64,000 nucleotides of DNA from a virus (taxonomy: Duplodnaviria; Caudoviricetes), in the IMG/VR virus record IMGVR_UViG_3300021255_000131, positions 47,049-111,048 of that record. One strand, given 5' to 3'. The position numbers and the translations under genes are program-made. This document shows positions 3,089 through 62,893 of this stretch, in pieces. Within the stretch, counting starts at the first letter, position 1. Each line of letters begins with the position of its first letter. Below the pieces are notes generated by a model, which was not told the origin of the DNA, made no database searches, and saw only the letters and a list, made by a program, of their open reading frames with translations.

Positions 3089-3105
3089 TGAAACACTCCT
3101 TTCTT

Positions 3106-43963: not shown

Positions 43964-46900
43964 ATGGCAGACGAAATTGAACTATCAGTACATATAGACA
44001 ATCAACAAGCACTTATGTCGTTGACAGAATTAGAAGTCAAAGCCGGTGAGATGAGTGAAAGTGTTCAGCAAATGCAATCTGGTATGACAACGCAGCTTCC
44101 CGGTTATGCTGAAGGTATGGCGTTTCAGTATTCTCAATTTCAAGACAACCTGCAACGACTCATCGACTTAAGGCGAAGTATAGATACTGCATCCAGCAGT
44201 TTCGATGCAGATCGTTTGACAGAATCATTTACAAGGTCTTTAAAAACTATCGAAAACGTTTATAAAGATTTTACCGAAAACTTTCAATTTTCCAAAACGA
44301 TTGAAAGCAATCTGTCAGGCATGGGAGACGCTGTTAAGAACAATCTTCTTTCGTCTCTCAGAGAATTACAACCTGAATTGATTGGTGAACTACGGAAATT
44401 CGCAGCTTCGGCAACGCAGGCAGTCGGAGCACAAACAGATAAAAGCTTATTGAATATGTTTGCCGGCAGCGACGCATTTAAGAGACTACAGAGACAATTA
44501 ACACAACGTACTTCTGCTTTTGGCGGTTCTGACGACAGCTCTCTGCATAATCTTCAAACTCTTGCAAAATTAAGTATGCCATTTGCTGTCGCTCAGTATA
44601 ACAGACAACAAATCGTTGACTGGTTTGATAAGACCAATGCTCCCGAAACTTTTAGACAAATGCTTCCTAAAAGCTTTCAGACGATTCCGGCTTACCTTAA
44701 AAATACTCAACTCAGACAACGCGGGAGCAATGCTGCAGAAAACAGGCATTTGACAAACGATGAGAAGAAGGCTTTAGAAAGTATTATAACATCTGATTCG
44801 TTTGCCCTTGATGCCGCAGTTTCTCAGGGTATCGCCAGAAAGCATAACGGACGTATTTTTCTAAACGAATATACAACCAGAGAAATGATTAACGCTATGG
44901 CCGGACGTGTCATGCACGACATCGTCAACGGCGCTCAGGGCGAAGCGCGTTATGGAATTACTGATGTTGAAGATCCAGATGTCTTTTATAAGATCATTCG
45001 CAAAAACAATAAGATGCTGACTGGCAGTTTACAAACTGCCAGAGTGATGAACGATCGTTTTGGATCATGGTTGAATCCCGGATATTATGAAGCGTCTAAA
45101 GGTCGGTTTTCTGAAGGCGGCAAAGATTTAGGCACCGTTCGATTCGCACCGAGAATCGATACGCGCGCTTTTGCTGAATATACGCTCGATGAAATGAAAC
45201 ACGGCGCACAGTTCGACGGGCAACCAGTGACGGAAGAAGGAAGACCAGTCAGGCCAGAAGACTACCATCAGATCACATTGCGAGACAGTATTCATCACAG
45301 AAAATTACGCGCAACGCAGGCCGGTGACAATGTTGAACATAATGGTTTCAGCAGAAACGCTATCTACTTAAAAACTCCAGAAGAAGCTTACGATTATGAA
45401 ACTTCACCTGAAAGATTAAAAGAAATAGAAAAAGATTTAGCCGAAAGAATTGAAAATGGTTATACTGTCAATGGCAGACATTATTCATACGTCAGGCACA
45501 ATGCAACTCATGCCGAATTTGTTCTCGACGATATTATCAAAGAATTAGGCGGCGGGGATTTTGAAAAAGGCAGAAACGTATTTTTAAACGGTGCGCAAAG
45601 ACGATATACGGATCCTGTCAAATTTCATAAGGCGTTAGATTATCAAAATAAGACAGCTACCGACTCTCAAAGGATTGCTGACTTATATGGATCAGACTTA
45701 CGTGGCGCAAAAGTAGTTGTGTCTAACCTTAAAGAGCTCGGTATGGACGGCTTCAATTTAATAAGTGATGAAATTGTTCCGGCCAGCTTTCAAGGCAGAG
45801 AAAATGAGGCAGCCGAAAAAGCTACATATGTTAAGTTCAATATGGCCGGCTTACGAAAACTTTATAAAGATAAAATTGATAGTCAAGGCAATCTTGTTAT
45901 CCCTAAAGCTGCGCCTGGCGGACAAGATTTAGTTATCGGGCCGGATGTTACAATGATAGAAGACCAGGCCAACATAAAAAACTTTGATAGCCTGTATCGT
46001 GACAAAAAAGGAAATCTATTACCTCTTGAAGCAATTAATGCCGCCAGAAGCCAAGTTATGCAGCGCGGGGATCTTTCAGCCAAAGTAACATATGAAGGCG
46101 CTAATACTGAAAAAAGATGGTTGTCTCATCAGATGGTTCAGACTTTAGGTCCTGTTTTTACTCCTGAACTTCGGAAATACTTTATGCAAAATGTTTTCGA
46201 TGAATTAGCTTCGCTTGGTGACGACGAAACTGTACGTAGGAAATTATTTGGCGGGCAAAATATTGATTTAAATTCTCCTGCTGCTCAGCAGACTATACAG
46301 GATTACAGAGATTCTATTTTTGAAAGAATATCTCAAGGTGACCTTTTGGGTCCTGAAGGCGGTATTCAATACGGAATGGCTGCGCCGTGGGTTCCCAGCA
46401 TCGTCAACAAAGCATTGAAGCGTGCTGGAGTTTCGCTAACAAAAGAGCAGGAAAACGCTGCAATCGACGAAAACAACGTTTTATTCATGAACATGCTTGC
46501 CGATACGCTGGGCATTGTTCGCGCTCCGTATTCAGCAGAAGGCAACATTGTCGCCGGTAATGAAGCAGTAAAAGATAATTTTAAAGCATTGGTAAAAACG
46601 CTGGGCCTTGACCCGAATGGTTTATATATGGCGCCTGGCGCTCCAATGCTCAGCTTTATGCAAACAGAAGACTTTGACGGCGACATTAATGCTATCATGG
46701 ACTTAAGCGGCCAAGGCGTTAGCCGGAATAATCCACGCTTTGCTGCCGCCATGAATAAGCTAATGACAGACGCTCAAGCGTGGTACCAAAAAAACATTGT
46801 CGAAAGATCCGGCAGAACACAAGAAGAGCAAGAAGCATTAAAAGCTCAACGTACCATTCAAGCTGCTAATCAGCCTGGTGCCGTGTTCGACATGTTTGAT

Positions 46901-49900
46901 AGTAAAACCAACGCACACGAAATCATTGAAGGCGCGCAAGCCGGGCAAAAGATGGGATTAGCCAACGCTGTTGACCGTAATGCATGGCAGTATGGTGTAT
47001 CTCAACGTGTCGCAAGAGCTCACCGAGATTCAGCGTCTCACTATGACGCTGTTTCTACGTTTTTAAAAGAAAGAAACAATTTTGATTTAACTGAAGACGA
47101 ACGAAAAATTCTCTCTGGCGGCGCTCCATTTGCGGCTATGTTTAAGTGGATAAACGATGCTTTAGAAGATGTAGATGGCAATCGGATGTGGACAGAAAAC
47201 AGTCAAGCGCAATTCAATAAACATAATATTGATAAAGTGAATCTTCCCAGCCAGAAGCAAGGAGATATTCAAGCAGCTTTATATACAAGGTTTTTAGCCC
47301 ATAAACAGGGCTTTGATATTAACGGCAAACTGAATTTAGATGAAATATTTGCTAAGTTACCTGAAGTAGATTTAAACACAGCTACCGGCAGAATGACTCA
47401 GCAGTTAAGAAATATACGGCGCGACATGGGCAAAGGTCTATATGTGGCTTTGTCTGATTCATTGGCCGAAGAAACAAAACTGATGAGTACAATGGCTTAT
47501 AATGAGATCACAAGAGACGTTAATCAAGACAGTCGTTTTGTTACTACGAGCGATAAAAACAAGGAAATTGCAAGACGGTTCAGAGAAGCTGGCGGAGAAG
47601 TAGCGAAAAACATAGATCAATTTGTTGTTACAGAATCTATTGCACGTGGTAACCAAGATTTAAGAAATGAGTTAAAACAGCTTTCTGATTTATCTGGTCA
47701 ACACTCTGTTTTTGGCACGAGCTATGGAATAACATTTAAAGAACCAGAAAAAGTCATTGAGCAGAACAAGCGAGAATTAGAAAGAATTGATAAAGAGAAT
47801 CAAGAAAAACAACGTCGTGTTGATGAAATAAAAGCTAAACAGGCTGGCAATGGCCGCAGGCTTATTTCCGATACGGAATATATGATATATGATCCAAATA
47901 TATCTAAAGAACAAAATATCAAAGAGCGAACTGAACATTTTAAAAAACAAGGTCTTTCTCAAGAAGCAATTGATAAAGATGCAAAAGCTGTTTCAGACTT
48001 GTATGATGCTATTGAATCAGGACAAATAATTGTAGATGACGGAAAGAATTCTAAGTTCAAGGTTAAAAACAATGGACAATGGGTCAACTTAGCCAATGAA
48101 GAGGTTGAAGAGCTCAAGCAATTAAAAACATTAACAACAGAGATCGGTGATAACGACGAAAGAAAAGCAGCTATCGAACAGAATATTGATTTGGCCGAAA
48201 ATCAGATTTCAGCAGCTTATAATTTTATAAAAGCACAAGAGAGGTTTAATGGCATACGGTCTAACGTTGGACAATTTACTTCAGGCCTCTATTCTTCTAT
48301 TGCGAAAAAAGAAAATGAATTAGAAGGATTAAGCAAAGCGGATATATATTATAACGATAAATGGAATATGGCTAATCGTCTTAGCAAAGAGTTGGACGCT
48401 TTTAGAGAATCGCAAGAATTTGCAGCGTTGAGTACGGACGATCAAGATACCATTAATCGCTGGCTTTCCAAAGACAATGGTTTGTTTGCTTTAGTGGATA
48501 AAGATTTAGCAGAAACAACAGCGTTCAAGACTAAGAGAACGCTGGAGCAATATCAAAAAAAGAATGTAAAGCATAATGGGAACGCTGCGATATTAAAAGA
48601 TCGTTTTGAGGCATACGATAAGGATATAGAAAATTTAATAGGATATAGAGATCTGTTAGAGGAACGTTTAGCTGCTGGCGGATTTGACGATAAAACAAGG
48701 GATCTGTTTGAAAAGCGATTGGTAGAATCAAATAAAAATATCACATCTGCGCAGGGCGAAGTTGGGCGACTGAAAGTTTCTGAAGCCACCGAAACATTAG
48801 ATAAAATAAAAAACACTGTAATTAATGACCCATTTCAAAAACTAAAGCAAGGTGCTGCTGAAGCTAAGGTTCAAGTATCAGCTTTGGTTGATGTTCTTGC
48901 AAAAGTATACAAAGATCAAGGTTTAAATGATGCAGAAATAGAAAAGAAAATGAAAAATTATTCGACGCTTACTCAACAAATTGATGAAAACGCTGCATTT
49001 CAAAAAGATGTTTTGGACTTGCAACAGCGTTCTAAAGTTAGACAAATATTAGGCACATATTCAACGGATATAGACAGCTATGACTTAGAAAGACAAAAAG
49101 CTTTTTTGGATTTTAGGCAAGAACAAAGCCGTATCGCAAAAAAATATAATTCAGGAAAGCTTATTACTGACGATGAGCGTCGATTACTTAGCACTTCTTT
49201 TGCAGAGTACAATCGCCGATTTGATGAGAGGCATTTAGATGTATCTTCGTATTTAACTGGAGAGGATGCTGTACGTCATAAAGCCAGCGTTAATGTTGAT
49301 AACGCTAACAAGATCATCGAAAGAATTCGAAAAAGCAAGCTTAATAAAGAAGAGAAAGAGCTTCGCGAAGACACGATAAAAAGGATGTTTGGAGACAATT
49401 ATGTAGATGACCAAGTGGCCGCTTATCGAATTCAACAAAGTATGAAAGATCAGCGACAGTTGATGCAGGCAGAACGCGCCGAGATGCAGGGACAGCAGAT
49501 GCAGCGCAACTGGAATATGCGTGGATTCAGTGATCCTTTCTCTCGTCGTTACATGCAGCGCATGAGCATGTATGACCAGTACCGCAGTCAGTATTCTTAC
49601 AACAAGTTGATGGCAGCTCAGGCTGCGCAGGCTCAGCGTGAGAGAAAGCAAGCGTTAGATCGGCTCAGTCCGAACGCTACTGATGAAGAAAGGGCCAACG
49701 CTCAAACAAGTTATGATACGGCAACAGCGGCACTGAACCATTGGAACGCAGCATTAGAAGCATCTCAGCAAGGCATGCAGCATTTCGGTGACGAAAGCGG
49801 AAACTTCAACAGCTCTATGAACGCTATGGGCGCGGCGATCGATACTGCTGCGGAGGCGTTAGACAGGCTGATCCAAGGCTTTGGCCGGCAGATATTCAAC

Positions 49901-52900
49901 AAGGCGATCAGCGAAGCGAAAGCGTTCACGACACAGTTTGATACGCAGATGCGCACGATCCAGGCTATTACAATGAAGTCTGACAGCGAGATGGCTACAG
50001 TACGCAGGCAGACGATTGACCGTGCGATACAGCTGAAGACACCCGTGGCAAACGTTGCGTCTGTCGAAGCTGACCTGTACCGCCAGGGCTTAAACGACCA
50101 GCAGGTTGAAGAACGCACGAGCGCAATCATCAAGTTTGCTACAGTTGCCGGCGCGAAGGTGACGGATGCCGGTAAGGCAATCACTACGGCGATACAGAAC
50201 GGGCTTGTCTCTTCCGCTACAGAAGCGATGGATGTCCTTGTCGCGCTCGGCGATACAGCCGCTACAACGGCAGAGCAGATCTTCAGAGGTATGCAGAAAT
50301 CCGCTGCCGCCGCCAAGGTGGCGGGCGTCAGCTACGAAGAGCTGACGACGCTGCTGACGATTGGCACGAGCAAGACGCAGCTGAGCGGCCAGGTGATTGG
50401 TACCGGCTTGCAGACGATCTTTAGCCGCATGAACCGCGTTACAAATCAGGGCCTTGTCAACGATCAGTCCGGTGCGACAACTACGATTAACGATGTTGAA
50501 GCCGCCCTGAAGAGCGCAGGCGTTAAGTTAAGAAACGATGACGGCAAGAGTTTCCGCAACAGCTTCGACGTTTTAAGAGACTTAAGTAAAGTCTGGGGCA
50601 ACCTGACGGATATTCAGCGCAGCAATATTACGTATACGATGGCTGGCGGCCGACAGATGAACGTGTTCCAAAGCTTGATGGAAGGTATGTCTGAAGATGG
50701 CGGAGCCGAGCTTGAACGTCTGTTAGGCATGGCTGAGAACAGTGAAGGAACGACCGAGAACAAGTACGCGATCTCGATCAAGAGCGTGACGGCAGCGTTA
50801 GACGAACTGAAGAGTACGTATGATAGCCTTGTCAATACGATCGCCGGAGGTAACTCAATCGCTCCCGCTATCGAAGGTGTCACCGGGATCATCAACGGAT
50901 TCAACAACCTCGTCTCTAATGGACAGAGCTGGGTTGCTGGACTTGCGATTATTGGCGCGGCGCTTGTCGCGTTCGGCGTAAAGGCGATGGTGGCCAATGC
51001 CGCAGTTGAAGGATTTGGCAAAGGTACGCTTGGCGTACTTGGTACTATTCTGTCTCTTGGTGCAGCGGCAGGTATCATCGCTATTGCCGGTGGCGTTGGG
51101 GATATGGTTGAAGGCGCAAGCAATAACACAGAAGAAGCGAGAACGAAGAAGCAGATTGAATCCGGCAATAAGTTCTATGAAGCTCAGATGAAGAGAACAG
51201 CTGATGAGCAGAAACAAATAGATAAAGTAAGAGAACTTGGTGAAGCTTACGAAAGAGCAGAAGGTCAGATGAAAACTGAAAAGGCTGAAGCGTTGAAGAG
51301 TGCATTAGAGGGATTATATACAACGTTAGGTGGATTAAGTGTTGGGTTTGATGAAAACGGTGCTGTTGTACTGAAATGGGCTGAAGCAGTAGGTGAGGCT
51401 CAGAAAAAGGTTACGCAATTAAGATTAGACGCTGCAAAAGTTGCTGACACTGCAAAATTTAAAGAGTTTAGTTCAAATCTTGAAACAGTATTCGATGAAA
51501 ATAATTATACTGTTGGGCTGTATGAAAACAACGGTTTTAACTCAAGAGACATTGTACAAAATTCTTTGACGTATGCTTCGCAGTTTCCGGGTTTATTTTA
51601 TTCTTTGGCTGAATCTGATACTGTAAGAAACGTTATTAAAGGAAAAACTGGACGAGAAGTATTTAACGACGATGTATATACGTATTTAGGATCAATTGGT
51701 ATTGCAGCAGAAGATCAGGAAAAATATATAGTCACAGACGAAAACGGTGATAAAAAGCTTAATGAGGATGCTTTGATTGACTATTTTGCGGCTAAATATT
51801 TATTGGATTTAAACACGCAAGACCCAGAAGAAGTATATAAGCATATCGAAGAAGCCAAGGGACAAAAAATAGAAAATGATTCCGCAATATATCTTTCTAG
51901 TGTATTTAATTGGCTTAAAGGTTTCGAAGGAAGCACGGAATACACAGAGATGTTGAATAATGTTGGCGGCGATATGTCCCAAATAAAACCTGAGACATAT
52001 TTAGAAGCTCTTCAGAATTATCAACAGCATTCTCAATCAAGTTCGTTAAGTGGAGCACAAATTAACGCAAGTGAAGCGAAGATAAGTACAGTAGAATCAT
52101 ATTTGAGAAATAGCAGCCGTCTGTCATATTTATTCAAAGATATGGATCAAAAAGTTTTTGAAGGATTTATATCGCAAGCTATTAAAGATATTAATCCTGG
52201 TCAATATACTGATGCCGGCGAACTTGCAAATGCTACAGAAGCATATATAGGAAACGCAGTTTCCAGATATGCAAATAAAGATACAGAATTTTTGAACAAA
52301 ACTTTTAATCCATATGATTCAAAATATAATTCTCAGATTACGTATACAGGGAAAGATGGTAAGACATATACTTTCGGTACAGAAGAATACGTAGATGCGA
52401 ATGACGCAGAACGTATTCAGACTTTGATCGATCAACACTATAACGAGATGACGAGTATAGATACTGATCCAATGGTATCGGCCGTTGAAGGGGCCGGAGA
52501 CTCAATAGTTGATGCAATTGGCGCACTTGCTGAAGTAATTACAGGAGACGAGACAGCAAAAGAACGGTATGAAGCCCTATTAAGCAAAGGCAAAGAAACC
52601 GCAACCACACCGCAAACTGATCAAACTACATCTGAACCAACAATGTCCAGCTTTGTTGCTCCTGAAGGAGCCATAAAAATTGCTGCTGGGTCTGCGAGCG
52701 ATGTTGGTCCTGGATATAAGCGGCCAGAAGCTCAAGCCAAACAAATGACGCCGCAGGAACGTCTTACAAATTTATATCAGCAAGGTATTGCCGCTGGATT
52801 TACTCCTGCAGAATTGTCAGAGATGGGTTTAAATGAAGCTTTATTCAACTCTTTATCAATTTCTGGTTGGGATGCCAACACGTTTGAAAGCTTTATTGGT

Positions 52901-55900
52901 CCAATAGAAAAGATAATCGGAGAAAGAAACACAAAGTTAGCACTTAAACATGCTTTACCGTACATGTCTTTAGATGAAATGCATGAAGCCGGAGCTATTG
53001 ATGATTCTTTGTATACTGAAGCAAAGCGTCACCGTTGGACGTATGCGGATGTATACAACAGAGGACTATTAAACAACACTATTCTTTCTTCTGAAGCACT
53101 GAGTAATGTAACTTCTAAAATCACTGAAAAACAGGAAGCTGGAAATGCTGAAACAAGAAAGAAAGCGGAAGGTGCAGCGAAACTACATCAAATGTTTGAT
53201 GGGCTAACTGATGAACAAATAGAAGAAAGAAAGGATTTATTGCCTTTTCTTCCGGCGTATAAACAGTTATTAATCGACGAAGCGTTTATGGCTGGGGCCG
53301 AACTTAAACCAATGTCTTCGTCTGTCACGCCGTTAGATGTAGACATATTAAAAGACGATACGGAAAGAAGCCGCAAAAGGCCTGAGTTTATTAAAGCGTT
53401 GGCGGATAAAGGTATTACGAGCTATGCTGACTTTGAGAGAGGTTTAGATTCACAATGGATTGATGGATTGCTTTTAGATGTGCTTCCTGCTATTGGATGG
53501 ACTTCGAAACAACTGGTTGATCATGGATTATTAACACAAAAACAAATAGACGAAGGAGATTATGATGCGATTAGAGGAGTGGCAGAAATGCTATATGGTG
53601 CTTTTTTTAGTCGAAAGGAACATGATGAAACATACGGCACAACTTCAACAGGTATATCAACTTATAAAGATTTGCAAATTTCTCAAACGCCATATGATTA
53701 CAAAGAAACAGACGAGCCTTTTGTAGGAAAAAAAGATAGAATAAGGACAAATTCTGTTAAAGAAAAAGCAAATGAGATAAAGATAGCAGCAGCGCACGAG
53801 GGCTTTAGGAGATCGCAACACGCTGGCGCAACTGTCGCAGAATCACTTAGTATAGCGCAACAAGCATCCGATGCTGCAGAAGAAATAATCGAAGATACAA
53901 TCGAAGAAACGCTTGGTACCGATGGCCCAGTTGACTTGCCAAAGCTCGGAGATTTGCAACTTAATGAAATTACCAGAAATCTTAGTGATAAGTTTAGCGT
54001 GTTGTCGAGCGTTGGAGAAATGCTCAGAGCTCCTGAAATTATTAAAGAAGCGGTTGAATCTGTTGGAGAATCGATTGGCAACATGGCTACCGATTTAGTT
54101 AATGGAGTCGTCAGTTTGTTTACGGTTCCGACAGCTGAAACAGACGAAGATCCTGAACTGGTGAGTAGAAGAATTAAGAGAAGTAAAGAGTTAGAAGCCG
54201 CGAAGCAAATTGAAGACGAAAGATTGTCGACAGAAACATATAGGACGGAAAGAAAACGAGGTAAACAGAACACAAAGGATGGTTTAGTAAAGTCTGAAGA
54301 ATCAGGAACTTCTGGAAATACGCTTAAACAAGTTGAAACAAAAGAAAGGAGAAGCCTTGAACAAATCATTGAAGATGCGACCATTAATGGGAACGTAAAT
54401 AATCCTGACTTAAGCGGACTTTATTCTCGTTTATTAACTAGTTCAACAAACGTTAGTACGCTTGCAGAGCTTAACGATATTATTGGTGAAAACGCAGATG
54501 ATTACGAAAAACTATTTTCTAGTAATGAAAAGCTAAGAAAAATAGGCGAAAGCCTCAGAAAAGGTGATGGCGAATACTCCATAGAAGATTTCCGCGAAGA
54601 GTTAAGACAAGGTGCTGCAGGTACTACGCTTAAAACTCTCATGCCTCAAATTACTGGAACAGCCTATACATACGATCAACAACTTGCTGCATTGACCGCC
54701 GTTGAAAACGGTACGGCAACTACAGAACAAATGGATCTGGTTGCGAAGCAGTGGGGGATTGACAGGAATACTCTGATGAATAATAAAGGCGCGTATACAG
54801 TGCTTGAGAGAAACAGGTTGCAAGGAGAAGCTGGGGCAATGGGACGCAGCGCCGCTACTGTGTTTAATAAATTGTTTGATTTTGAGGAAAACGCAGAAAA
54901 CAAAGCTATTTTTGAAGCGCTTCATCCAGAAATATCCGGAGGAGAAGCACGTTTCCGCGCTTTCTGGACTCAATACGCTGGCAACAACGAAGAATACAAG
55001 TCAATGATGGACGCCTACAAACAAGCTGGTTATACGTTTGAGATGAACGACCAAGGGCAAGTTACAGCAAAGTATAACGGCAAGGCTGTTGAAGAAAACC
55101 CGCTAAACCCGTTTGATTGGAATCGCAGACACGTATCAAGAGCGCAGACATTGGCTGACATTAACACCGTAATCAATGGCGGAGAACTAACTGGCAAAAA
55201 CATTGAAGAACGTAAAACACTGTTAAAAGGTTATTCGAGTGAAGTTGCTCAGTATCTCGAAATGGATGATAAACTTCGCGAATCTGCAGAAGGACAAGAG
55301 CTACTCAAGAAAATAAAAATACAGATTGAGGTAGATGGATTAGATAACTTAGTTGCGGTCGGTGAATTAACGCAGGAAGCTGCAACTGCTGCAAAGAATC
55401 TGTCGGCCGGTGGTATTCTCAGATTTGACGCAATGAAATCTATTCGTTCTCAGACGTATTCGAATCAGCAGCTTGGCGGCCTTGCTTCCGCAAGTCCTAC
55501 ATCTTTCACAAAAGAAATGGATCAAGCGTTGATGAGTCAGCTTGGATTAACAGAGGCGCAATACTACTCGCAAGATCGTACACATTGGCAAAATGAATTG
55601 CAGGATTATCTTGGAAGCGACGCTTTTGAAACGAGCATTGTGAACGCGTATGAAGAAGAGATGAAAAACGCGAAAAGCATGAAAGATCGTAATGAGATTA
55701 GAGCGCGTTATCGAACAACGTACGGTTTGCGCGGAGAGCGCGATGGTGGATATTCGATAGACAGAAACTGGTACAACAATCAAAATTACCAAACTGTGAA
55801 TTCTTTTAAAGCGACGCAGCCTATTCATACAAAATCGCAGGTGTTGGAAGCCGCACGAGAGATATATGGTAGACAGTTAAGCGTTGAACAAGCGGACACA

Positions 55901-58900
55901 CAATATAAAGAATATGCTGACGAATTAAAGAGCAGTTATCCTGAGCTGTACGAATATCTTAACACCGATAACGCTGCTCGCAAGGCAGAACTTGAGACGC
56001 AAATCAAGTTGAAGTTTGCTGTTGATGGATTGGCCGATGTGAAGGAATTCAAGACAGAGCTTGAGTCAATCAAAGCTTTGGCGGCGGAGCTGTCTGCGTC
56101 TGGCACCGGCGAACAAAGAATCAACGCGTTGAACGCCGGGTTTGAGGATTTGCAATACAGAGCGTATGTATATCAGCAAGTTGATAAGGTGCGCAAAGGC
56201 GAGATTGGATATCAGGACGTCGCGCCAGAAGTGTGGAAGTATGTGGCCGGTGTTGTTGGCGCCAAAAATGTTGAGACCGCTACAGACGCCCAGAATTATC
56301 AAGACATATATGGAACAAGTCTGATTGACTTACTGTTTAACAATAGCGAAGGTTATCGTCAAGAGCATGAAGCGGCACTGACCGCATTGCTGCAAAACGG
56401 ACAAATTACTGAAGAAGCTGTTACGGCCCTCGGCGGTTCTGTTAGACGTGATAAGAATATTGACGTAGAAGGTAAAGCTACCGTTACGCCGAGAGTTGTT
56501 TTAGACGAGGATTGGTTTAGTGGTGTTAACTATACGCCGAAGCGAAAGTATACCACGGACAGCGTATATTCAAGAGCTGAGAATATGGATATGCTGCGGA
56601 CTATTAGAGAACAAGAAATGAGTTTAGATGCTGCTCAGGGTATATATGAAGATCAGATATCTCAAAGCAGCAGCCTTGTAAAAGCGTTGCAACTTGAAGA
56701 ACGTCGGCGTCAAGGCAAAAAAGTGGACCAAGCAGAAATCGACCAGCTTTGGGAACAAGCTGAGAAAGATTTCTCGAGTGATCCGCTGGCAGGGCAGAAA
56801 GCTCAGCTGACGACGAAAGAATTGGTTAGTCAAGTAAATGATATTGTTGCGGCAGGGGAAGCTGGAAGAGATGTGTTTAAAGGGCTTGACTCTACTGTAC
56901 AGCAGCAGTTGATGAATCTGAACGGATTCTCTCAATTTATGCTGACTCTCGGCGAGAATACTGAAGCCGCCACACAGGCGCAGAAAACGTTGGCAAGGAC
57001 TGTGTTGTCTGAAACTGTCAAAGCGCTTGAAGAAGAGGGAAAAGTTATTAAAGGATTAAGCAGCGATCTCGATACAATCATTTATGGCAACGTCGTAGAT
57101 AGTACAAAGCAGATAAATCAAACGAATGCTGATTTAGTACAGATGGCAAACATCGGTGAAATATATAAACGGCTCACCTCTGGCGGAATTACGAGAGAGC
57201 AGGACTGGAAAGACTTTGCGAGCTTCTTTAACATTCGTGAAGAAGATCTGGTTAAATACCGTACCGGAGAGAAGAGTTTGACGGCCGATTATGGATCCAG
57301 AGTAACTGGCACTGAAACGCTGAGAGCTGATACAGCTATGCAAGCTGCGGAGCAAATTATAAGAGCGAGTCTTAAAGATGAACAGTTGTACGAAACTAAG
57401 GAAGTTGAAGATGTTCCTACAGGGTTTGTCGACAGATTATTCTATAATTTGTATACTGCTGCTGGCGGCTCTAAGAGAATGAAGACAGTAAAAACCGAGA
57501 AAAGCACTGACGAGATTATCGCGGGATTCGAAGGGGAACAGTTGACATCCATAAATAATCAGCTTGAACCATTTGGATTAACGATTCGAGACGGTGAGCT
57601 TGTTAGTATTGACGGCGGCATGGCGGATAAACCGCTGACTATGCAGCAACGTGCCGCCATCGCATCTGCAACAAGAAGTTCTGCAGAAAATACAAGCAAG
57701 GCACATGACTATAGGCTGTTGCTACAATACGGGAGAGGCTTTAAAACAAGAAACTTCAGAGGCAATATGTTTGAAGCCTTAGAGAGACACGCCCAACAAT
57801 TAGCTCAAGGTGACAACTTTACAAGTGATGCTGCTGAACAATTCTTCGCGTCTCAGGAGTATGCTGAATTAAAAGAAAACAACGATTATGAAGGATTAAT
57901 GGCTCGTCTGTTCGCTTTGGAAAACGGACAAGAAGCGTCTAATCCTTACAACATTAACAGCGAAGAAGTTCAAAAGTATCTTACAGCAGCAGAGACCGGA
58001 GACTATAAGACGCTTGCAAAGTTTTCAGAGGAAAAACCTCTTTTGAAAAATTATATGCAAACCATTCCTGGATGGTTTAACATATACAGCCAATATACGA
58101 CAAACCAACCTGTAGATGAAGAAGAGCTGAAAGCATTCAAGGGCGAGCGCGTTTATGCAGAACTTGCTGAAATGGAACGTCTGGGTACCATCAGAAAAGG
58201 CACGGCACAGCTTGGACGTACATTGACAACAGGGACAGAAGAAGAGCAGAGGCAAGCTGTAAATACAGCTGGGTCTGAGATCAGAAGTGCTGCTAACGCT
58301 AAGAAAATTGTGAATGAAATGATTGAAAACACAGATGAAATTACAGATGCGCAATGGGTTGCATTAAAAGCAACTGGCGAAGTAGGCGATACAGAGATAG
58401 CGTATTACAGACAGCACACAGATGAGCTCGACAAATTAAAAACAAGACTTGAGTCAAAAGAAAATGACTTGTCGACTGCGCTCGAAACTGCTTTAGCGAA
58501 AGCGTTCAATCTTGGTTCGTTTGATGATATAATCGCAGACGGAAATGAGCAGATAAAGGCAGCTATAGAAGCATTACTTAATCTTGCTGGATTGCAACTA
58601 AATATAGACGGTGAAAATGTTGATGTTGGAAGATTAAAAGATACTAGGGCAGGATCTGTAATTGTTAGCGAGGCTGCTGATGCAGTGTCAGGATACGGAA
58701 ATAAGCAAACCAACGCAGCGAGGCGTAGACAGTTTTATGAAATTGTATTTGAAAGCGGGGACGCAACAGAGTTCAATGCCGCGTTAGATGCTTTAGGTAA
58801 AGAAAATGAATGGGCGAAAGATGCTGACGAGTGGAAAAAGGTTCTCACGGAGGATCAAGCCAGCTTGATGATGTCAATGCTTAACGGTGGAATCAGTTAT

Positions 58901-61720
58901 GAGTCCTTTAGGAACCAGATACAGCAAGGTTCTCCTTATGCGCCATTATATCTGAACAATTCACTATTTCCTGTGGTTGACACATTGCAGCAGTACGCTG
59001 GAGATAATTTTGCATATAATCCAGAATTTGATCGTGAAGGTTTTGAAAACTTTATATCTACTACACAAGAAGGTGCTAGCTTCGCATCGTCGATGAATTC
59101 GCTTGAATACGGGGCACAAGTTATGCGAACATTTGGCGAAAACACTGATGAGGCTAACGAATATTGGCGCTTGTTTTTGAATGCACTTTCGGCTAAGTCA
59201 ATAGCGCAAATGGAGCAATGGGGCGACAATACAAAAGAAGTGTCTGATGCTGTATCTGATCTTGGCAAAAATTCAAAAACAGCTTTGTCAACTACTGGAC
59301 AGTTGATAAATAAGATGTCAAAGCTTAACGATCAGGCTTATGCCGCGAGTAAGGCTAAAGGAAAAAGCGGAAGTCAGCTTGATTCAAAAGCACTTGGTGT
59401 GTTGTCATCTGCTACTGGTATCGATCAACAAGCAATGAAGAAAATGACAAAAGAAGAAATCGATGGTCTTGCCGACATGGTTGAATCTTCAGCAAACGAA
59501 GAGTTTTTGCCGATAGGTCAAATAGTGGCAGAAAGATTCCAGGAATCCGTCAATCAGGCTATCGGAAGCGGAAAGATTACGTTGCCGCAAGTGCTTGAAC
59601 TTAGTGTTGATGGACAGGGAACATTTGATTTTGCGGGGATTGAAGCTTTGGCAAAGATGATGTCCGACGAAGAACTTGCGGCTTTGGCAGCGTACGCTGG
59701 TAAAATCGCTACACTTACTGCCAAATACAGCTCTAGCGGAGAACAAATCACAGTTGAAAACGTTTTGACGTCTTTGCTCGGCGGAAGCGGTGCTGGTTAT
59801 AAGAGCGCCGGCGGCGGAGGCGGCGGAGGCGGAGGTAAGTCCGCAGCTCAGAAGCTGATGGAAGAGCTTAAGCGTGAGCAATCTCTCCGCAACCACGAGA
59901 TCAAAATGATACAGTTCCAGGAGACACGGTATCATAACAAAGATGAGTACGGTAACGAGAACGCGATGATCGCGTTGGAGAACGAAGCACAAAAACGTTT
60001 GATTAAAACGTTACAGGACGCTATTGAAAAGACAAAGCAGCAGATGGCGCAGACTAAGAAAGGTTCTGACGATTGGAACAGCTTATACGACAGCGTACTC
60101 AATTACGAAGAAGCGATCGAGCAGGCAACACAGGCAATCGAAGATAATACAAAGAAAATGTTAGAGAACGAAAAAGCTATTTTGAAAACAAGAACCGATC
60201 TTGAGCAATCCGTACTGAAAGAAATTGAAGCAAGAAAGCAGAGAGAACGGGATATGCTTGACGGCACTGTCAGCATGCAAGACATTGTACTTGAAGCGAT
60301 TCGCCAGCGTTATCGCGACGAATGGGAGCTTGTTAAAAAAGACATCGAGAAGAAGAAGGAAGCGCTCGAAGAAGAGAAGAGTTTGATTGATGAGCGTCTG
60401 CAGCGCCGTAAAGATGCTGAAGATGAAGCTGAGAAATATGAAGAGCTTGCCGAGTACAAGAAGCAGCTTGCGCTTATCCAGACGGACAGCACACGTACGA
60501 AGGATGCTGCGAAACTGCGCGAAAAGATTGCTGAAATTGAGAAGGAAATTGCCTGGGATGCTGCTCAGGATGAAGCAGATTATCAGAAAGAACAGATCGA
60601 CGATCAGCTTGAAGCTTACGATGATTTTCTGAACTACGGCGAAGAAGATCTTGAAAGCTTCCTCGAAGACGCTGACAATCTGTCTTCCGAAGTAACGAGT
60701 GTTATGCAGTTAAATCAAGAAGGTTTAATGCAGTGGCTCAGAGAAAACGTTAAAGAATATGCGTTGGCTATGACAGCTGCACAGCAGCAGATGATCCAAG
60801 GCTGGACTGATACGTACGAACAAATGCTTGGCAAAACTCACACGTATTGGGATGAGATCAACGAGATCCTGACCGGCAAACAGACTTGGCTCGAGTATAT
60901 GAAGCAGAGTCAAGAATACATTAACGCAAGCGAAGATGAACGTAAAACAATGTTGATAGAATGGGGCGAAATGTATGATAAATATGTTGCTGCCCATTTG
61001 ACTGGTGCTACGTATAGTCATACTGATGAACAGCTTGCCGGCACCGGAACAAGCGGCAGCGGCGGAGGTTCTGGCGGCGGCGGTGGATCAGGAAGCGGAG
61101 AGTATAAAGTTAAATACAAACCGTCTGGATATATTTGGGGATCTTCTTATGCGTCTGAGAGTGATGCAAAAGCTGCCATTAGCGCTGCTGCTAAGAGAAT
61201 GGGTACGAATGTTGGAGACTATGAGATTATAAAGCCGGCCAATGTAACAACGCCAACGACAACATCTACTACAACGCCTACAACGCATACGATGGCTACT
61301 GTCGGTCCTGATATACCTACAACGTCTACAACAGCAGAAGGCGTTATCGATGAGATATTGCATTATATTTATTCTGGCGGCATTAAGTACGCTTCCGGCG
61401 GCCTCGTAGATTATACAGGTCCTGCCTGGGTTGATGGCACACCGTCCAAACCAGAAGCATTCCTGAGCGCTGAAGACACACAGATGATGCGTAACTGGAT
61501 CGAGAGCGCCAAGTATGTACAGTATCGATCGACGGTCAGCAACATTGACGGTTCCGCGTTTAACGGAAGCTCGCAGAATATTGGCGAGCTGATTATCAAT
61601 ATTACAGAAGCTCAGTTCAAAGACGATGCTGATTTCGACGAAGTTGCAAGACGCGTTGGCAATCAGTTTGTCAAAGAATTATCCAAACAAGGATTCCATA
61701 CGATGAGTTATTCGTTTTAA
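43964..61720 (+). CDS. Giant tape measure protein (5918 aa) with an N-terminal two-barrel RNA polymerase domain, RNAP-3
   Basis: TMP core around aa 1985-2300 (FDTQMRTIQAIT...IGTGLQTIFSRM...AGGRQMN); C-terminal YASGGLVDYTGPAWVDG; RNAP motifs MDGFNLI..FQGR (aa 594-612), VRAP (aa 852) and DFDGD (aa 903-907, nt 46670-46684). Confidence 0.88.
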   Translation: MADEIELSVHIDNQQALMSLTELEVKAGEMSESVQQMQSGMTTQLPGYAEGMAFQYSQFQDNLQRLIDLRRSIDTASSSFDADRLTESFTRSLKTIENVYKDFTENFQFSKTIESNLSGMGDAVKNNLLSSLRELQPELIGELRKFAASATQAVGAQTDKSLLNMFAGSDAFKRLQRQLTQRTSAFGGSDDSSLHNLQTLAKLSMPFAVAQYNRQQIVDWFDKTNAPETFRQMLPKSFQTIPAYLKNTQLRQRGSNAAENRHLTNDEKKALESIITSDSFALDAAVSQGIARKHNGRIFLNEYTTREMINAMAGRVMHDIVNGAQGEARYGITDVEDPDVFYKIIRKNNKMLTGSLQTARVMNDRFGSWLNPGYYEASKGRFSEGGKDLGTVRFAPRIDTRAFAEYTLDEMKHGAQFDGQPVTEEGRPVRPEDYHQITLRDSIHHRKLRATQAGDNVEHNGFSRNAIYLKTPEEAYDYETSPERLKEIEKDLAERIENGYTVNGRHYSYVRHNATHAEFVLDDIIKELGGGDFEKGRNVFLNGAQRRYTDPVKFHKALDYQNKTATDSQRIADLYGSDLRGAKVVVSNLKELGMDGFNLISDEIVPASFQGRENEAAEKATYVKFNMAGLRKLYKDKIDSQGNLVIPKAAPGGQDLVIGPDVTMIEDQANIKNFDSLYRDKKGNLLPLEAINAARSQVMQRGDLSAKVTYEGANTEKRWLSHQMVQTLGPVFTPELRKYFMQNVFDELASLGDDETVRRKLFGGQNIDLNSPAAQQTIQDYRDSIFERISQGDLLGPEGGIQYGMAAPWVPSIVNKALKRAGVSLTKEQENAAIDENNVLFMNMLADTLGIVRAPYSAEGNIVAGNEAVKDNFKALVKTLGLDPNGLYMAPGAPMLSFMQTEDFDGDINAIMDLSGQGVSRNNPRFAAAMNKLMTDAQAWYQKNIVERSGRTQEEQEALKAQRTIQAANQPGAVFDMFDSKTNAHEIIEGAQAGQKMGLANAVDRNAWQYGVSQRVARAHRDSASHYDAVSTFLKERNNFDLTEDERKILSGGAPFAAMFKWINDALEDVDGNRMWTENSQAQFNKHNIDKVNLPSQKQGDIQAALYTRFLAHKQGFDINGKLNLDEIFAKLPEVDLNTATGRMTQQLRNIRRDMGKGLYVALSDSLAEETKLMSTMAYNEITRDVNQDSRFVTTSDKNKEIARRFREAGGEVAKNIDQFVVTESIARGNQDLRNELKQLSDLSGQHSVFGTSYGITFKEPEKVIEQNKRELERIDKENQEKQRRVDEIKAKQAGNGRRLISDTEYMIYDPNISKEQNIKERTEHFKKQGLSQEAIDKDAKAVSDLYDAIESGQIIVDDGKNSKFKVKNNGQWVNLANEEVEELKQLKTLTTEIGDNDERKAAIEQNIDLAENQISAAYNFIKAQERFNGIRSNVGQFTSGLYSSIAKKENELEGLSKADIYYNDKWNMANRLSKELDAFRESQEFAALSTDDQDTINRWLSKDNGLFALVDKDLAETTAFKTKRTLEQYQKKNVKHNGNAAILKDRFEAYDKDIENLIGYRDLLEERLAAGGFDDKTRDLFEKRLVESNKNITSAQGEVGRLKVSEATETLDKIKNTVINDPFQKLKQGAAEAKVQVSALVDVLAKVYKDQGLNDAEIEKKMKNYSTLTQQIDENAAFQKDVLDLQQRSKVRQILGTYSTDIDSYDLERQKAFLDFRQEQSRIAKKYNSGKLITDDERRLLSTSFAEYNRRFDERHLDVSSYLTGEDAVRHKASVNVDNANKIIERIRKSKLNKEEKELREDTIKRMFGDNYVDDQVAAYRIQQSMKDQRQLMQAERAEMQGQQMQRNWNMRGFSDPFSRRYMQRMSMYDQYRSQYSYNKLMAAQAAQAQRERKQALDRLSPNATDEERANAQTSYDTATAALNHWNAALEASQQGMQHFGDESGNFNSSMNAMGAAIDTAAEALDRLIQGFGRQIFNKAISEAKAFTTQFDTQMRTIQAITMKSDSEMATVRRQTIDRAIQLKTPVANVASVEADLYRQGLNDQQVEERTSAIIKFATVAGAKVTDAGKAITTAIQNGLVSSATEAMDVLVALGDTAATTAEQIFRGMQKSAAAAKVAGVSYEELTTLLTIGTSKTQLSGQVIGTGLQTIFSRMNRVTNQGLVNDQSGATTTINDVEAALKSAGVKLRNDDGKSFRNSFDVLRDLSKVWGNLTDIQRSNITYTMAGGRQMNVFQSLMEGMSEDGGAELERLLGMAENSEGTTENKYAISIKSVTAALDELKSTYDSLVNTIAGGNSIAPAIEGVTGIINGFNNLVSNGQSWVAGLAIIGAALVAFGVKAMVANAAVEGFGKGTLGVLGTILSLGAAAGIIAIAGGVGDMVEGASNNTEEARTKKQIESGNKFYEAQMKRTADEQKQIDKVRELGEAYERAEGQMKTEKAEALKSALEGLYTTLGGLSVGFDENGAVVLKWAEAVGEAQKKVTQLRLDAAKVADTAKFKEFSSNLETVFDENNYTVGLYENNGFNSRDIVQNSLTYASQFPGLFYSLAESDTVRNVIKGKTGREVFNDDVYTYLGSIGIAAEDQEKYIVTDENGDKKLNEDALIDYFAAKYLLDLNTQDPEEVYKHIEEAKGQKIENDSAIYLSSVFNWLKGFEGSTEYTEMLNNVGGDMSQIKPETYLEALQNYQQHSQSSSLSGAQINASEAKISTVESYLRNSSRLSYLFKDMDQKVFEGFISQAIKDINPGQYTDAGELANATEAYIGNAVSRYANKDTEFLNKTFNPYDSKYNSQITYTGKDGKTYTFGTEEYVDANDAERIQTLIDQHYNEMTSIDTDPMVSAVEGAGDSIVDAIGALAEVITGDETAKERYEALLSKGKETATTPQTDQTTSEPTMSSFVAPEGAIKIAAGSASDVGPGYKRPEAQAKQMTPQERLTNLYQQGIAAGFTPAELSEMGLNEALFNSLSISGWDANTFESFIGPIEKIIGERNTKLALKHALPYMSLDEMHEAGAIDDSLYTEAKRHRWTYADVYNRGLLNNTILSSEALSNVTSKITEKQEAGNAETRKKAEGAAKLHQMFDGLTDEQIEERKDLLPFLPAYKQLLIDEAFMAGAELKPMSSSVTPLDVDILKDDTERSRKRPEFIKALADKGITSYADFERGLDSQWIDGLLLDVLPAIGWTSKQLVDHGLLTQKQIDEGDYDAIRGVAEMLYGAFFSRKEHDETYGTTSTGISTYKDLQISQTPYDYKETDEPFVGKKDRIRTNSVKEKANEIKIAAAHEGFRRSQHAGATVAESLSIAQQASDAAEEIIEDTIEETLGTDGPVDLPKLGDLQLNEITRNLSDKFSVLSSVGEMLRAPEIIKEAVESVGESIGNMATDLVNGVVSLFTVPTAETDEDPELVSRRIKRSKELEAAKQIEDERLSTETYRTERKRGKQNTKDGLVKSEESGTSGNTLKQVETKERRSLEQIIEDATINGNVNNPDLSGLYSRLLTSSTNVSTLAELNDIIGENADDYEKLFSSNEKLRKIGESLRKGDGEYSIEDFREELRQGAAGTTLKTLMPQITGTAYTYDQQLAALTAVENGTATTEQMDLVAKQWGIDRNTLMNNKGAYTVLERNRLQGEAGAMGRSAATVFNKLFDFEENAENKAIFEALHPEISGGEARFRAFWTQYAGNNEEYKSMMDAYKQAGYTFEMNDQGQVTAKYNGKAVEENPLNPFDWNRRHVSRAQTLADINTVINGGELTGKNIEERKTLLKGYSSEVAQYLEMDDKLRESAEGQELLKKIKIQIEVDGLDNLVAVGELTQEAATAAKNLSAGGILRFDAMKSIRSQTYSNQQLGGLASASPTSFTKEMDQALMSQLGLTEAQYYSQDRTHWQNELQDYLGSDAFETSIVNAYEEEMKNAKSMKDRNEIRARYRTTYGLRGERDGGYSIDRNWYNNQNYQTVNSFKATQPIHTKSQVLEAAREIYGRQLSVEQADTQYKEYADELKSSYPELYEYLNTDNAARKAELETQIKLKFAVDGLADVKEFKTELESIKALAAELSASGTGEQRINALNAGFEDLQYRAYVYQQVDKVRKGEIGYQDVAPEVWKYVAGVVGAKNVETATDAQNYQDIYGTSLIDLLFNNSEGYRQEHEAALTALLQNGQITEEAVTALGGSVRRDKNIDVEGKATVTPRVVLDEDWFSGVNYTPKRKYTTDSVYSRAENMDMLRTIREQEMSLDAAQGIYEDQISQSSSLVKALQLEERRRQGKKVDQAEIDQLWEQAEKDFSSDPLAGQKAQLTTKELVSQVNDIVAAGEAGRDVFKGLDSTVQQQLMNLNGFSQFMLTLGENTEAATQAQKTLARTVLSETVKALEEEGKVIKGLSSDLDTIIYGNVVDSTKQINQTNADLVQMANIGEIYKRLTSGGITREQDWKDFASFFNIREEDLVKYRTGEKSLTADYGSRVTGTETLRADTAMQAAEQIIRASLKDEQLYETKEVEDVPTGFVDRLFYNLYTAAGGSKRMKTVKTEKSTDEIIAGFEGEQLTSINNQLEPFGLTIRDGELVSIDGGMADKPLTMQQRAAIASATRSSAENTSKAHDYRLLLQYGRGFKTRNFRGNMFEALERHAQQLAQGDNFTSDAAEQFFASQEYAELKENNDYEGLMARLFALENGQEASNPYNINSEEVQKYLTAAETGDYKTLAKFSEEKPLLKNYMQTIPGWFNIYSQYTTNQPVDEEELKAFKGERVYAELAEMERLGTIRKGTAQLGRTLTTGTEEEQRQAVNTAGSEIRSAANAKKIVNEMIENTDEITDAQWVALKATGEVGDTEIAYYRQHTDELDKLKTRLESKENDLSTALETALAKAFNLGSFDDIIADGNEQIKAAIEALLNLAGLQLNIDGENVDVGRLKDTRAGSVIVSEAADAVSGYGNKQTNAARRRQFYEIVFESGDATEFNAALDALGKENEWAKDADEWKKVLTEDQASLMMSMLNGGISYESFRNQIQQGSPYAPLYLNNSLFPVVDTLQQYAGDNFAYNPEFDREGFENFISTTQEGASFASSMNSLEYGAQVMRTFGENTDEANEYWRLFLNALSAKSIAQMEQWGDNTKEVSDAVSDLGKNSKTALSTTGQLINKMSKLNDQAYAASKAKGKSGSQLDSKALGVLSSATGIDQQAMKKMTKEEIDGLADMVESSANEEFLPIGQIVAERFQESVNQAIGSGKITLPQVLELSVDGQGTFDFAGIEALAKMMSDEELAALAAYAGKIATLTAKYSSSGEQITVENVLTSLLGGSGAGYKSAGGGGGGGGGKSAAQKLMEELKREQSLRNHEIKMIQFQETRYHNKDEYGNENAMIALENEAQKRLIKTLQDAIEKTKQQMAQTKKGSDDWNSLYDSVLNYEEAIEQATQAIEDNTKKMLENEKAILKTRTDLEQSVLKEIEARKQRERDMLDGTVSMQDIVLEAIRQRYRDEWELVKKDIEKKKEALEEEKSLIDERLQRRKDAEDEAEKYEELAEYKKQLALIQTDSTRTKDAAKLREKIAEIEKEIAWDAAQDEADYQKEQIDDQLEAYDDFLNYGEEDLESFLEDADNLSSEVTSVMQLNQEGLMQWLRENVKEYALAMTAAQQQMIQGWTDTYEQMLGKTHTYWDEINEILTGKQTWLEYMKQSQEYINASEDERKTMLIEWGEMYDKYVAAHLTGATYSHTDEQLAGTGTSGSGGGSGGGGGSGSGEYKVKYKPSGYIWGSSYASESDAKAAISAAAKRMGTNVGDYEIIKPANVTTPTTTSTTTPTTHTMATVGPDIPTTSTTAEGVIDEILHYIYSGGIKYASGGLVDYTGPAWVDGTPSKPEAFLSAEDTQMMRNWIESAKYVQYRSTVSNIDGSAFNGSSQNIGELIINITEAQFKDDADFDEVARRVGNQFVKELSKQGFHTMSYSF

Positions 61721-61726
61721 CGAGAC

Positions 61727-61756
61727 GTCGCCCCGGGCTTTGCCGCCCGGGGCGAC
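61727..61756 (+). terminator. Hairpin after the TMP gene
   Basis: GTCGCCCCGGGC/GCCCGGGGCGAC. Confidence 0.55.
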
Positions 61757-61798: not shown

Positions 61799-62893
61799 AT
61801 GGTTGGAGGGTTTACTTTTGACGGCGTAGATATCGCTGACTTAAATTTAGAATACGCGCCGGAGTTAACGAACACATACGTATATAAACCCGCGGCAGCT
61901 AAGAATCACGAACAAGTGTTTGATGGACATGACGGCGGCTATTATTATGGGTCGTCTACTCAACCTAAAGAGTTTACTTTACGTTGTTTTTATGAAGCAC
62001 AACATGTTTCTGGCGGCGTCATGACAAGAATTTATAACACGTTTAAACGTGGTAAAGCCGGAAGGCTTGTTTTTAAGAAGCGTCCGTGGTGCTGGTATAC
62101 CGCTACAGTCACAAATGTTGAATCCGGGCAGATGTTCAATTTTGAAAACGGTGTTGTCTCTATCTCGCTTAAAGCATACTATCCCTTTGCGAGGTCGGAT
62201 TATTTAGGAATACCGGCAGGCAGCGAATACAGAGAAAGCATGTTGGCCAACAGCGCTTTGATCGATGAGAACGCTGTAAGTTTTGTTACTTCTTTTGCGA
62301 ACATAGGTGAGCCGATCCAGGCTGAGCAAAGCATATTGCTATATAACCCTGGCACTGAACGGGCAAAGGTTGCAATACGTATTGCTGGTGACGTAGGCAC
62401 AGGTATTTCTATAGACAACAATACAACAGGCCAAAGTAGTAGGTTTGTTGCCATTACACCTGATGTATGCGCGAACAACTATTACATACAAAGTGACGGT
62501 TTAAGCGGACAGACAGTTCTGACAAACGGTACAGCTGTAAAGCCTGGGTTCCTTTATCATGACTACGGGTTTATAGAACTTGATCCCGGCTTTCCTGCAT
62601 ATCGTGACGTTATAGTCACTATAGAAAATACAACAGATAACTCTGTTTTTAGCGACGGCAAGTTTACTTCAGACATGCTTGGCAGATATATTTATTTCAG
62701 AAGTGGCGAAAGCGCGAAGATTGTCAATGTAGTTGATGAAAACATAGTTGTGATAGATAAGCACTTGACAAACTCTGACAGTGGACCTGCACAGATTCTG
62801 AAAATGAATGAACTGTATGTAAAGCCGAATCCTGCCGGCGGGCAGATTCGGCTAACAAAGCTTGACTTTATTTTTAAACCTACATATGCGTAA
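61799..62893 (+). CDS. Distal tail protein (Dit)
   Basis: GFTFDGVDI...DGGYYYG...KEFTLRCF...LKAYYPFA; directly after the TMP. Confidence 0.82.
   Translation: MVGGFTFDGVDIADLNLEYAPELTNTYVYKPAAAKNHEQVFDGHDGGYYYGSSTQPKEFTLRCFYEAQHVSGGVMTRIYNTFKRGKAGRLVFKKRPWCWYTATVTNVESGQMFNFENGVVSISLKAYYPFARSDYLGIPAGSEYRESMLANSALIDENAVSFVTSFANIGEPIQAEQSILLYNPGTERAKVAIRIAGDVGTGISIDNNTTGQSSRFVAITPDVCANNYYIQSDGLSGQTVLTNGTAVKPGFLYHDYGFIELDPGFPAYRDVIVTIENTTDNSVFSDGKFTSDMLGRYIYFRSGESAKIVNVVDENIVVIDKHLTNSDSGPAQILKMNELYVKPNPAGGQIRLTKLDFIFKPTYA

Follow-up and report, generated by a model that had tools for sequence, protein, structure and literature searches.

A predicted two-barrel RNA polymerase within the giant tape measure protein of an uncultured SPbeta-like phage

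In the phage genome of IMG/VR record IMGVR_UViG_3300021255_000131, a 64,000-nucleotide stretch (positions 47,049 to 111,048; hereafter the window) encodes a giant protein of 5,918 amino acids, and an earlier reading of the DNA letters (the original prediction) proposed that an RNA polymerase (RNAP) domain lies hidden inside this tape measure protein. Our results argue for that proposal. We consider it rather probable that residues ~230-1240 constitute a complete single-chain two-barrel RNAP of the YonO/QDE-1 class, with its catalytic residues intact, which would be delivered with the virion as part of the tape measure and would serve early transcription, as gp96 of the Thermus phage P23-45 does. 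The computational evidence comprises the fold, the invariance of the catalytic residues, purifying selection, the in-frame fusion, the tape measure identity of the protein and the position of its gene.

The tape measure gene (43964..61720, + strand) is one uninterrupted open reading frame (ORF), the largest in the window by ORF list and translation, and carries an AAGGAGG ribosome-binding site 8 nt upstream of its ATG. Full-length relatives, both near-identical and diverged, are known from independent assemblies. On the same strand, the encoded protein begins with a region that AlphaFold2 models entirely as long helices (aa 1-229, 43964..44650), followed by the folded polymerase module (aa 230-1239, 44651..47680), which is ordered to model residue ~1010. 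Within the module, the predicted two-barrel core (aa ~397-1119, 45152..47320; model residues 168-885) is the part that superposes on the eukaryotic polymerases QDE-1 and RDR2. A helical linker (aa 1240-2024, 47681-50035) lies between the module and the tape measure core.

The window also encodes two stand-alone polymerases on the minus strand: RNAP-1 (3585..6404; 939 aa, DVDGD at residue 569), a YonO orthologue, and RNAP-2 (21220..24033; 937 aa, DNDGD at residue 560), a diverged YonO-like enzyme. The motifs that the original prediction quoted from the tape measure protein, MDGFNLISDEIVPASFQGR (aa 594-612, nt 45743-45799), EKAT (aa 618-621), LGIVRAP and QTEDFDGD (aa 900-907), are all present, in that order and well before the tape measure core. 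The first two belong to a first-barrel motif, G-x-DG...FQGR...K (aa 594-621, 45743..45826), in which G596, R612 and K619 are invariant in 42 of 42 family members. It is followed by RWLSxQxxQTL (aa 718-728, 46115..46147), which has an invariant Q723 and is common to both stand-alone polymerases; by the RxP motif LGIVRAP (aa 849-855, 46508..46528), with invariant R853 and P855, 47 residues before the catalytic loop; and by the predicted catalytic metal-binding loop itself, DFDGD (aa 903-907, 46670..46684). The motifs cited for comparison in RNAP-1 and RNAP-2 proved to be real, and their spacing is nearly equal in all three proteins: the distances from the first motif to RxP and from RxP to DxDGD are 243/45 residues in RNAP-1, 248/44 in RNAP-2 and 255/54 in the tape measure protein. 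Chaban et al. 2024 used [RK]xP placed 20-100 residues before DxDxD as a filter for such polymerases (PMC10770324), and the pattern [RK]xPx{20,100}DxDxD has exactly one match in the tape measure protein, at aa 853-907. Past the catalytic loop, a conserved MG..A..R.A.Q helix (aa 997-1010, 46952..46993), with nearly invariant M997 and G998, is a candidate equivalent of the bridge helix.

We modeled aa 230-1260 with AlphaFold2 from a 25-row alignment, and this gave a mean predicted local distance difference test (pLDDT) score of 86.2 and a predicted template modeling (pTM) score of 0.84. When the model was compared with the PDB by Foldseek, all 22 matches at E<=1e-3 were single-chain two-barrel RNAPs (QDE-1, RDR2 and phage enzymes), among them QDE-1 (2j7n) at E 1.2e-10 and P74-26 gp62 at E 4.9e-4. 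The next four matches, including phi14:2 gp66 (E 1.7e-3), P23-45 gp64 (E 1.9e-3) and P23-45 gp96 (E 6e-2), were likewise two-barrel polymerases, and the top matches in BFVD were phage proteins labeled 'RdRP' (E 2.5e-13). Alignment with VIA-align gave Z 17.7 for RDR2 (7roz; 502 residues, root-mean-square deviation (rmsd) 4.0 Å, model residues 168-885), 17.4 for QDE-1 (7y7p), 15.4 for P23-45 gp64 (8f72), 12.6 for gp62, 10.9 for P23-45 gp96 (8h2n; 368 residues) and ~7.5 for the cellular beta-prime, Rpb1 and A190 subunits. The cellular matches cover model residues 563-822, which comprise the DxDGD barrel and the following helix; the DFDGD region superposes on the cellular beta-prime barrel (e.g. 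E. coli 6pss_J residues 348-489), and the MG..A..R.A.Q helix falls within the same segment, aligned to the beta-prime barrel and bridge-helix region at Z ~7.5. As modeled, the module is a two-barrel polymerase with a catalytic core of two double-psi beta-barrels. The original prediction had staked its case on these barrels, and the model matches only two-barrel RNAPs, with Z ~17 over ~500 residues.

Profile-profile comparison pointed in the same direction. In hhalign, 437 collinear columns of the module family aligned with the RNAP-2 family (E 1.1e-5, probability 82%); they run through DxDGD and pair K619 with K297, RWxSxQ with RxLSRQ, RxPA with RHPA and DFDGD with DNDGD (module and RNAP-2 family, respectively). 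The E-value was 0.016 against the YonO family and 9e-6 against the merged RNAP-1 and RNAP-2 families, and controls with reversed alignments gave E 0.13-0.66. On sequence grounds, these scores support distant kinship with the YonO family rather than membership in it. BLASTP of the module gave no significant match to RNAP-1 (E 0.086) or RNAP-2 (E 1.1), and for both the best segments lay on the common LSxQ motif (aa 718-728). Hidden Markov models (HMMs) of the YonO and RNAP-2 families missed the tape measure protein, with no cross-match in either direction among the ORFs of the genome. Searches of PDB sequences with phmmer and with the family profile returned only coiled-coil noise from the helical leader, and 8H2N was not found by the profile; a feature search of the ESM Atlas gave scores <=0.81, which we treated as leads only.

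These comparisons bear on the explanation that the motif likeness arose by chance and that the region is simply an unusual helical or beta extension of the tape measure. DFDGD is the sole D.DGD in the protein, and a single occurrence is expected 0.12 times by chance given the size and composition of the protein; as a sequence motif by itself it is weak evidence, and the pairwise BLAST scores would fit a chance origin. Nevertheless, chance is ruled out because of the invariance in 42 of 42 relatives, the collinear profile-profile alignment with its controls and the predicted fold, which matches two-barrel polymerases only, at Z 17 over ~500 residues. We therefore find this explanation, already contradicted by the data, scarcely credible.

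To define the family, we searched 1.84 billion cluster representatives (clusters at 50% identity) exhaustively with phmmer; 73 representative clusters carried relatives of the module, 44 of them below E 1e-30. The module lies at residues ~250-1400 in all 34 long cluster members (3,695-6,027 aa), and PF10145 is also present in the giant relatives (word-indexed search). In an alignment of 42 members with 25-60% overall identity, D903, D905, D907, R612, K619, K672, Q723, R853 and P855 are invariant in all 42, R612, K619 and K672 being basic residues of the first barrel; G906 is kept in 41, the exception reading DLDSD. Thus DxDGD is conserved in homologous tape measure proteins, as the original prediction had anticipated, with its three aspartates retained throughout. 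Measured against L006, a 96%-identical relative, the module has a nonsynonymous rate (dN) of 0.022 and a synonymous rate (dS) of 0.60 (dN/dS 0.036); dN is 0.23 in the helical linker and reaches 0.32 in the tape measure core. The polymerase module is the most conserved and constrained part of the tape measure protein and is under strong purifying selection. Amino acids in the linker (aa 1240-2024) change ~10 times faster than those in the module (dN 0.23 versus 0.022 relative to L006).

An alternative is a catalytically dead relic of a polymerase that persists at the head-proximal end of the tape measure as a plug, either structural or DNA-binding. The activity of the module is predicted only, and the catalytic loop of the model has low local confidence, with residues 672-674 below pLDDT 50. 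However, the three aspartates, the RxP motif and the arginine and lysine of the first barrel are invariant in 42 of 42 members at 25-60% identity, dN/dS is 0.036, and dead enzymes normally lose exactly these residues. We regard a dead relic as highly improbable and favor an enzyme with an intact catalytic site.

tblastn of the module against 50,697 GenBank phage records gave no match, so that the SPbeta-group phages in GenBank are without it by this search, and two pattern scans of 185,579 species reference genomes detected no relative. Scanning viral contigs with the family alignment yielded three fragmentary loci. For co-occurrence within IMG/VR, the fragments recovered were 32-51% complete and too partial to inform, with one 853-aa DFDGD ORF in G002.

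Several giant-gene relatives (L016:2882-7078, L017:2171-6367 and L015:697-6153) contain in-frame TAGs beyond which homologous sequence continues in the same frame; in L015 there are 15 TAGs, translated as Q. Part of the phage family appears to reassign TAG, and gene callers split the tape measure genes of these phages. Three candidates for a free-standing version of the polymerase were examined and rejected: P0043 is the same giant gene cut by TAGs that are evidently read through, P0031 has TAG as Q and then ends at a TGA with a frame change, and P0016 has one in-frame TAA. In L014:1130-6134, a lone in-frame TAA directly follows the module (residue 1315), and the frame stays open for at least 350 further codons to the contig end; this stop might mark a natural division into a polymerase gene and a tape measure gene, a site of read-through or an error in sequencing.

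Stops of this kind are relevant to the idea that the module is cut from its precursor before or during assembly and is then either a free, non-virion enzyme or discarded, rather than injected. Some tape measure proteins undergo processing. The L014 stop coincides with the module boundary and the frame goes on past it, L015 ends with a TGA and a frame change after 1,818 residues, and both would be in keeping with cleavage. On the other hand, the fusion is in frame and at the same position in 34 of 34 long representative clusters, a late structural operon would be a poor source of an early enzyme unless the particle carried it, and antibodies to gp96 detect the fused form in P23-45 virions (PMC10770324). 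We judge removal of the module to be quite unlikely, and prefer a module that stays within the tape measure.

The ORF at 43964-61720 is the tape measure protein of a long-tailed phage. We base this identity on the tape measure core itself (PhageMin_Tail, aa 2025-2228, 50036..50647, + strand; PF10145 E=1e-23), which nine PHROG tape measure families match (best E 7e-32), on hydrophobic segments, on the distal tail (Dit) and tail-associated (Tal) genes downstream and on virion genes upstream. In a Kyte-Doolittle scan (19-residue window, score >1.6), the only segments of the whole protein above the cut-off were two membrane-span-like stretches at aa 2321-2348 and 2354-2380 (50924..51103). The Dit gene (61799..62893, +) matches phrog_33 at E=2e-13 and, weakly, Pfam Sipho_tail; the Tal gene (62917..63999, +), of the SPbeta YomG type, matches PF24049 YOMG_N (E=1.7e-9) and Prophage_tail (E=5.9e-6) and runs off the window. 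Terminase, major head and other virion genes lie upstream of the tape measure gene, and relatives have YomU_Tube upstream of it. By the usual rule, each tape measure residue accounts for ~1.5 Å of tail length, which would predict a tail of roughly 0.7-0.9 micrometres.

Elsewhere in the tape measure protein, Pfam and PHROG searches of aa 1-1500, 3001-4500 and 4501-5918 gave no matches, and no metallopeptidase domain was detected by Pfam. When the N-terminal 420 residues were folded alone with AlphaFold2, structure searches returned generic helical bundles only (Z <8), and neither a nuclease nor another enzyme fold was seen, aa 230-400 being barely covered; the model thus presents the first 229 residues as a plain helical bundle. 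Near the C-terminus are a motif in the family consensus, GGxVDxTGxAWVDGT (61397..61441, +), and two glycine-rich linkers, a run of nine glycines kept in the family consensus (aa 5283-5293, 59810-59842) and an SG-rich segment (aa 5697-5712, 61052-61099).

The record, 111,048 bp long and rated complete, has a 107-bp terminal repeat, and the window covers its right-hand 64 kb. Gut metagenomes of bovine and other ruminant origin, from independent studies, contain near-identical sequence; among the sequencing runs listed as containing it, none is of RNA. The phage is an uncultured, SPbeta-like phage of the ruminant gut. The further suggestion that it infects Bacillota is reasonable in view of YOMG_N, YonB and YomU_Tube, the YonO orthologue and the AAGGAGG site, but is unproven; no prophage relative was found in reference genomes. 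RNAP-1 is 37% identical to SPbeta yonO (E 1e-123, tblastn), matches phrog_8308 at E 5e-176 and scores 23.9 bits against Pfam RdRP PF05183 (cut-off 23.8); its cultured relatives are all Bacillota phages. RNAP-2 matches phrog_8308 at E 2e-22, RNAP-1 at E 2e-5 (BLASTP) and the YonO-family HMM at E 1.7e-15, with an hhalign probability of 99.5%, and by these comparisons is a diverged paralogue of RNAP-1.

A mechanism can be proposed in which packaging, ejection, catalytic activity and the choice of transcribed genes are modeled on P23-45 gp96. The fusion protein would be built into the virion as the tail tape measure. At infection, the tape measure would exit the tail, and its hydrophobic segments might help to form a channel through the envelope. 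The N-terminal polymerase, which would be head-proximal and beside the leading DNA end, could then reach the cytoplasm and transcribe the first-entering genes without host RNAP, probably including the RNAP-2 gene, and RNAP-1 would subsequently act on late genes, as YonO does in SPbeta. A relay of this kind, in which RNAP-2 takes over from the fused enzyme and the YonO orthologue from RNAP-2, is plausible by analogy and is the least secure step. In its favor, L013, a distantly related phage with a module of 35% identity, also has a 947-aa DHDGD protein where RNAP-2 would be expected. A more extensive version, in which the fusion arose independently in SPbeta-like gut phages from a duplicated YonO-type polymerase and had no gp96-like ancestor, the three-polymerase relay proceeds without host RNAP at any stage, and coupling of DNA entry to first transcription has evolved recurrently and convergently, is possible, although as a whole we hold it to be doubtful.

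The L013 protein (L013:10437-13280, + strand; DHDGD at residue 620), syntenic with RNAP-2, is encoded just upstream of a divergently transcribed structural module; it has no BLAST similarity to RNAP-2 and is weakly similar to the YonO-family HMM.

An active polymerase might instead have a mainly mechanical or replicative job, either pulling the long genome out of the capsid by transcription, as the T7 and N4 polymerases do, or making RNA primers, with early transcription left to host RNAP or RNAP-2. The intact catalytic site and purifying selection fit this role equally, the two other polymerases in the genome could cover gene expression, and Chaban et al. propose a coupling between transcription and the passage of DNA through the tape measure pore (PMC10770324). 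Yet gp96, the sole tested case, transcribes defined pre-early genes from its own promoters, including the gene of the non-virion RNAP gp64 (PMC10770324), and pulling or priming and gene expression are not mutually exclusive. A mainly mechanical or replicative role therefore seems unlikely to us, and early transcription by the fused enzyme is the reading we retain.

Several points weigh against that reading. Pfam, PHROGs (aa 1-1500), BLASTP and HMM-versus-sequence searches all fail to link the module to any polymerase family, and the case for homology is built from one profile-profile score (82% probability) and a predicted structure. The phage is uncultured and the case computational, and the scans of reference genomes, having found no relative, give no prophage-based assignment of a host. 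A module of ~113 kDa cannot sit folded in a siphophage tail tube, a puzzle that gp96 poses as well. No promoter class is tied to the fused polymerase. Lastly, the in-frame TAA at the module boundary in L014 suggests that the fusion may be non-obligatory.

Other features of the genome were noted. A 28-bp element, TGTCGACATTCAAGAATGGATATATATG, occurs in four copies in the 111-kb genome (2386-2413 (-), 15993-16020 (+), 26200-26227 (+) and 61750-61777 (+)), where chance would predict none. The structural operon has one copy at its head, and the copy at 61750-61777 is placed between the tape measure gene and the Dit gene, 30 nt past the stop of the former and 22 nt short of the latter; the element is a candidate promoter for a phage polymerase. 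Two minus-strand ORFs oppose the structural operon in the interval from the tail genes to the start of the tape measure gene, 43040-43366 (108 aa) and 43392-43880 (162 aa), the latter with a strong GGAGG site; Pfam and PHROGs match neither of them. Homing-endonuclease-like genes lie within the tail part of the structural operon at 39407-40057 (+) and 41634-42269 (+), with matches to phrog_314 (E 2e-36), phrog_21138 and phrog_945.

As far as computation allows, our results support a second, sequence-unrelated and much larger family of predicted tape-measure-fused virion RNAPs. The combination of tape measure and RNAP, so far confined to a handful of Thermus phages, is now seen in ~70 clusters at 50% identity; the new family has no detectable sequence similarity to gp96, belongs to a different two-barrel branch and resides in SPbeta-type uncultured phages of the ruminant gut. 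If the reading is correct, injection of a polymerase within the tail ruler would be a general and probably convergent strategy of very long-tailed phages, biochemistry would gain a new, highly conserved single-chain polymerase of ~1,000 residues, and it would become possible to test a three-polymerase temporal program in a non-jumbo phage. Pfam and PHROG annotation misses such domains, which may be common in genes labeled 'tape measure'.

Among known systems, SPbeta YonO is a single-chain DNA-dependent RNAP that transcribes late genes (Forrest et al. 2017, PMC5467207). It shares with the module the polymerase class and the ordered motifs DG / R..K / LSxQ / RxP / DxDGD, and the phage analyzed here carries a true YonO orthologue (RNAP-1) along with SPbeta-type tail proteins. 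In contrast, YonO is a free protein of ~100 kDa whereas the module is fused to a tape measure, and the module is undetected by YonO-family HMMs, hhalign providing the only link. QDE-1 (2J7N) and RDR2 (7ROZ) are the best structural matches (Z 17.1-17.7, 500-546 residues, rmsd 3.4-5.2 Å), but their sequence identity to the module is ~10%, and they are free-standing eukaryotic RNA interference polymerases acting on RNA or single-stranded DNA templates. phi14:2 gp66 (crAss-like, PDB 6VR4) and the N4 virion RNAP likewise place a polymerase in a giant virion protein that is ejected to start transcription, and gp66 is also a two-barrel enzyme (the Foldseek match given above); both differ in being podovirus ejection proteins and not tape measures. 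The N4 enzyme has a T7-like fold unrelated to the two-barrel fold.

The closest architectural parallel is P23-45 gp96 with its homologues in P74-26, G20c and TSP4 (PDB 8H2N), which the original prediction had correctly cited as the precedent. In gp96, residues 327-1124 of a 5,002-aa tape measure protein form an active, virion-borne RNAP with a DFDGD loop at 779-783, a fusion that was previously unsuspected and was reported only for P23-45 relatives (Chaban et al. 2024, PMC10770324); we found the gp96-type domain in 10 Thermus phages only among the GenBank phage records. Both systems place a two-barrel RNAP, here a predicted one at aa 230-1239 of 5,918, in the N-terminal part of a giant tape measure protein (~5,000-6,000 aa), after a dispensable or helical leader, with a DFDGD loop and with hydrophobic segments further along, and both genomes encode a separate non-virion two-barrel RNAP elsewhere. 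The model matches the gp96 structure at Z 10.9 over 368 residues. Sequence homology to gp96 was not detected, tblastn being blank and hhalign aligning 64 columns, outside the active site, at E 0.0033 and a probability of 9.7%. The systems also differ in that the model is nearer to QDE-1 and RDR2 (Z 17) and to the clamp-bearing gp64 (15.4) than to gp96, in the backbone (SPbeta-like from the ruminant gut versus Oshimavirus from hot springs), in the number of additional polymerases (two here versus one) and in the metallopeptidase domain, which Pfam did not detect here. The module is a YonO/QDE-1-like polymerase that is no sequence relative of gp96 and is closer to RNAP-2 of its own phage. A very deep common origin with gp96 is possible; most likely, however, the module goes back to duplication of a YonO-type gene of the phage itself, and the fusion of tape measure and polymerase described here is probably a second lineage, independent of gp96.

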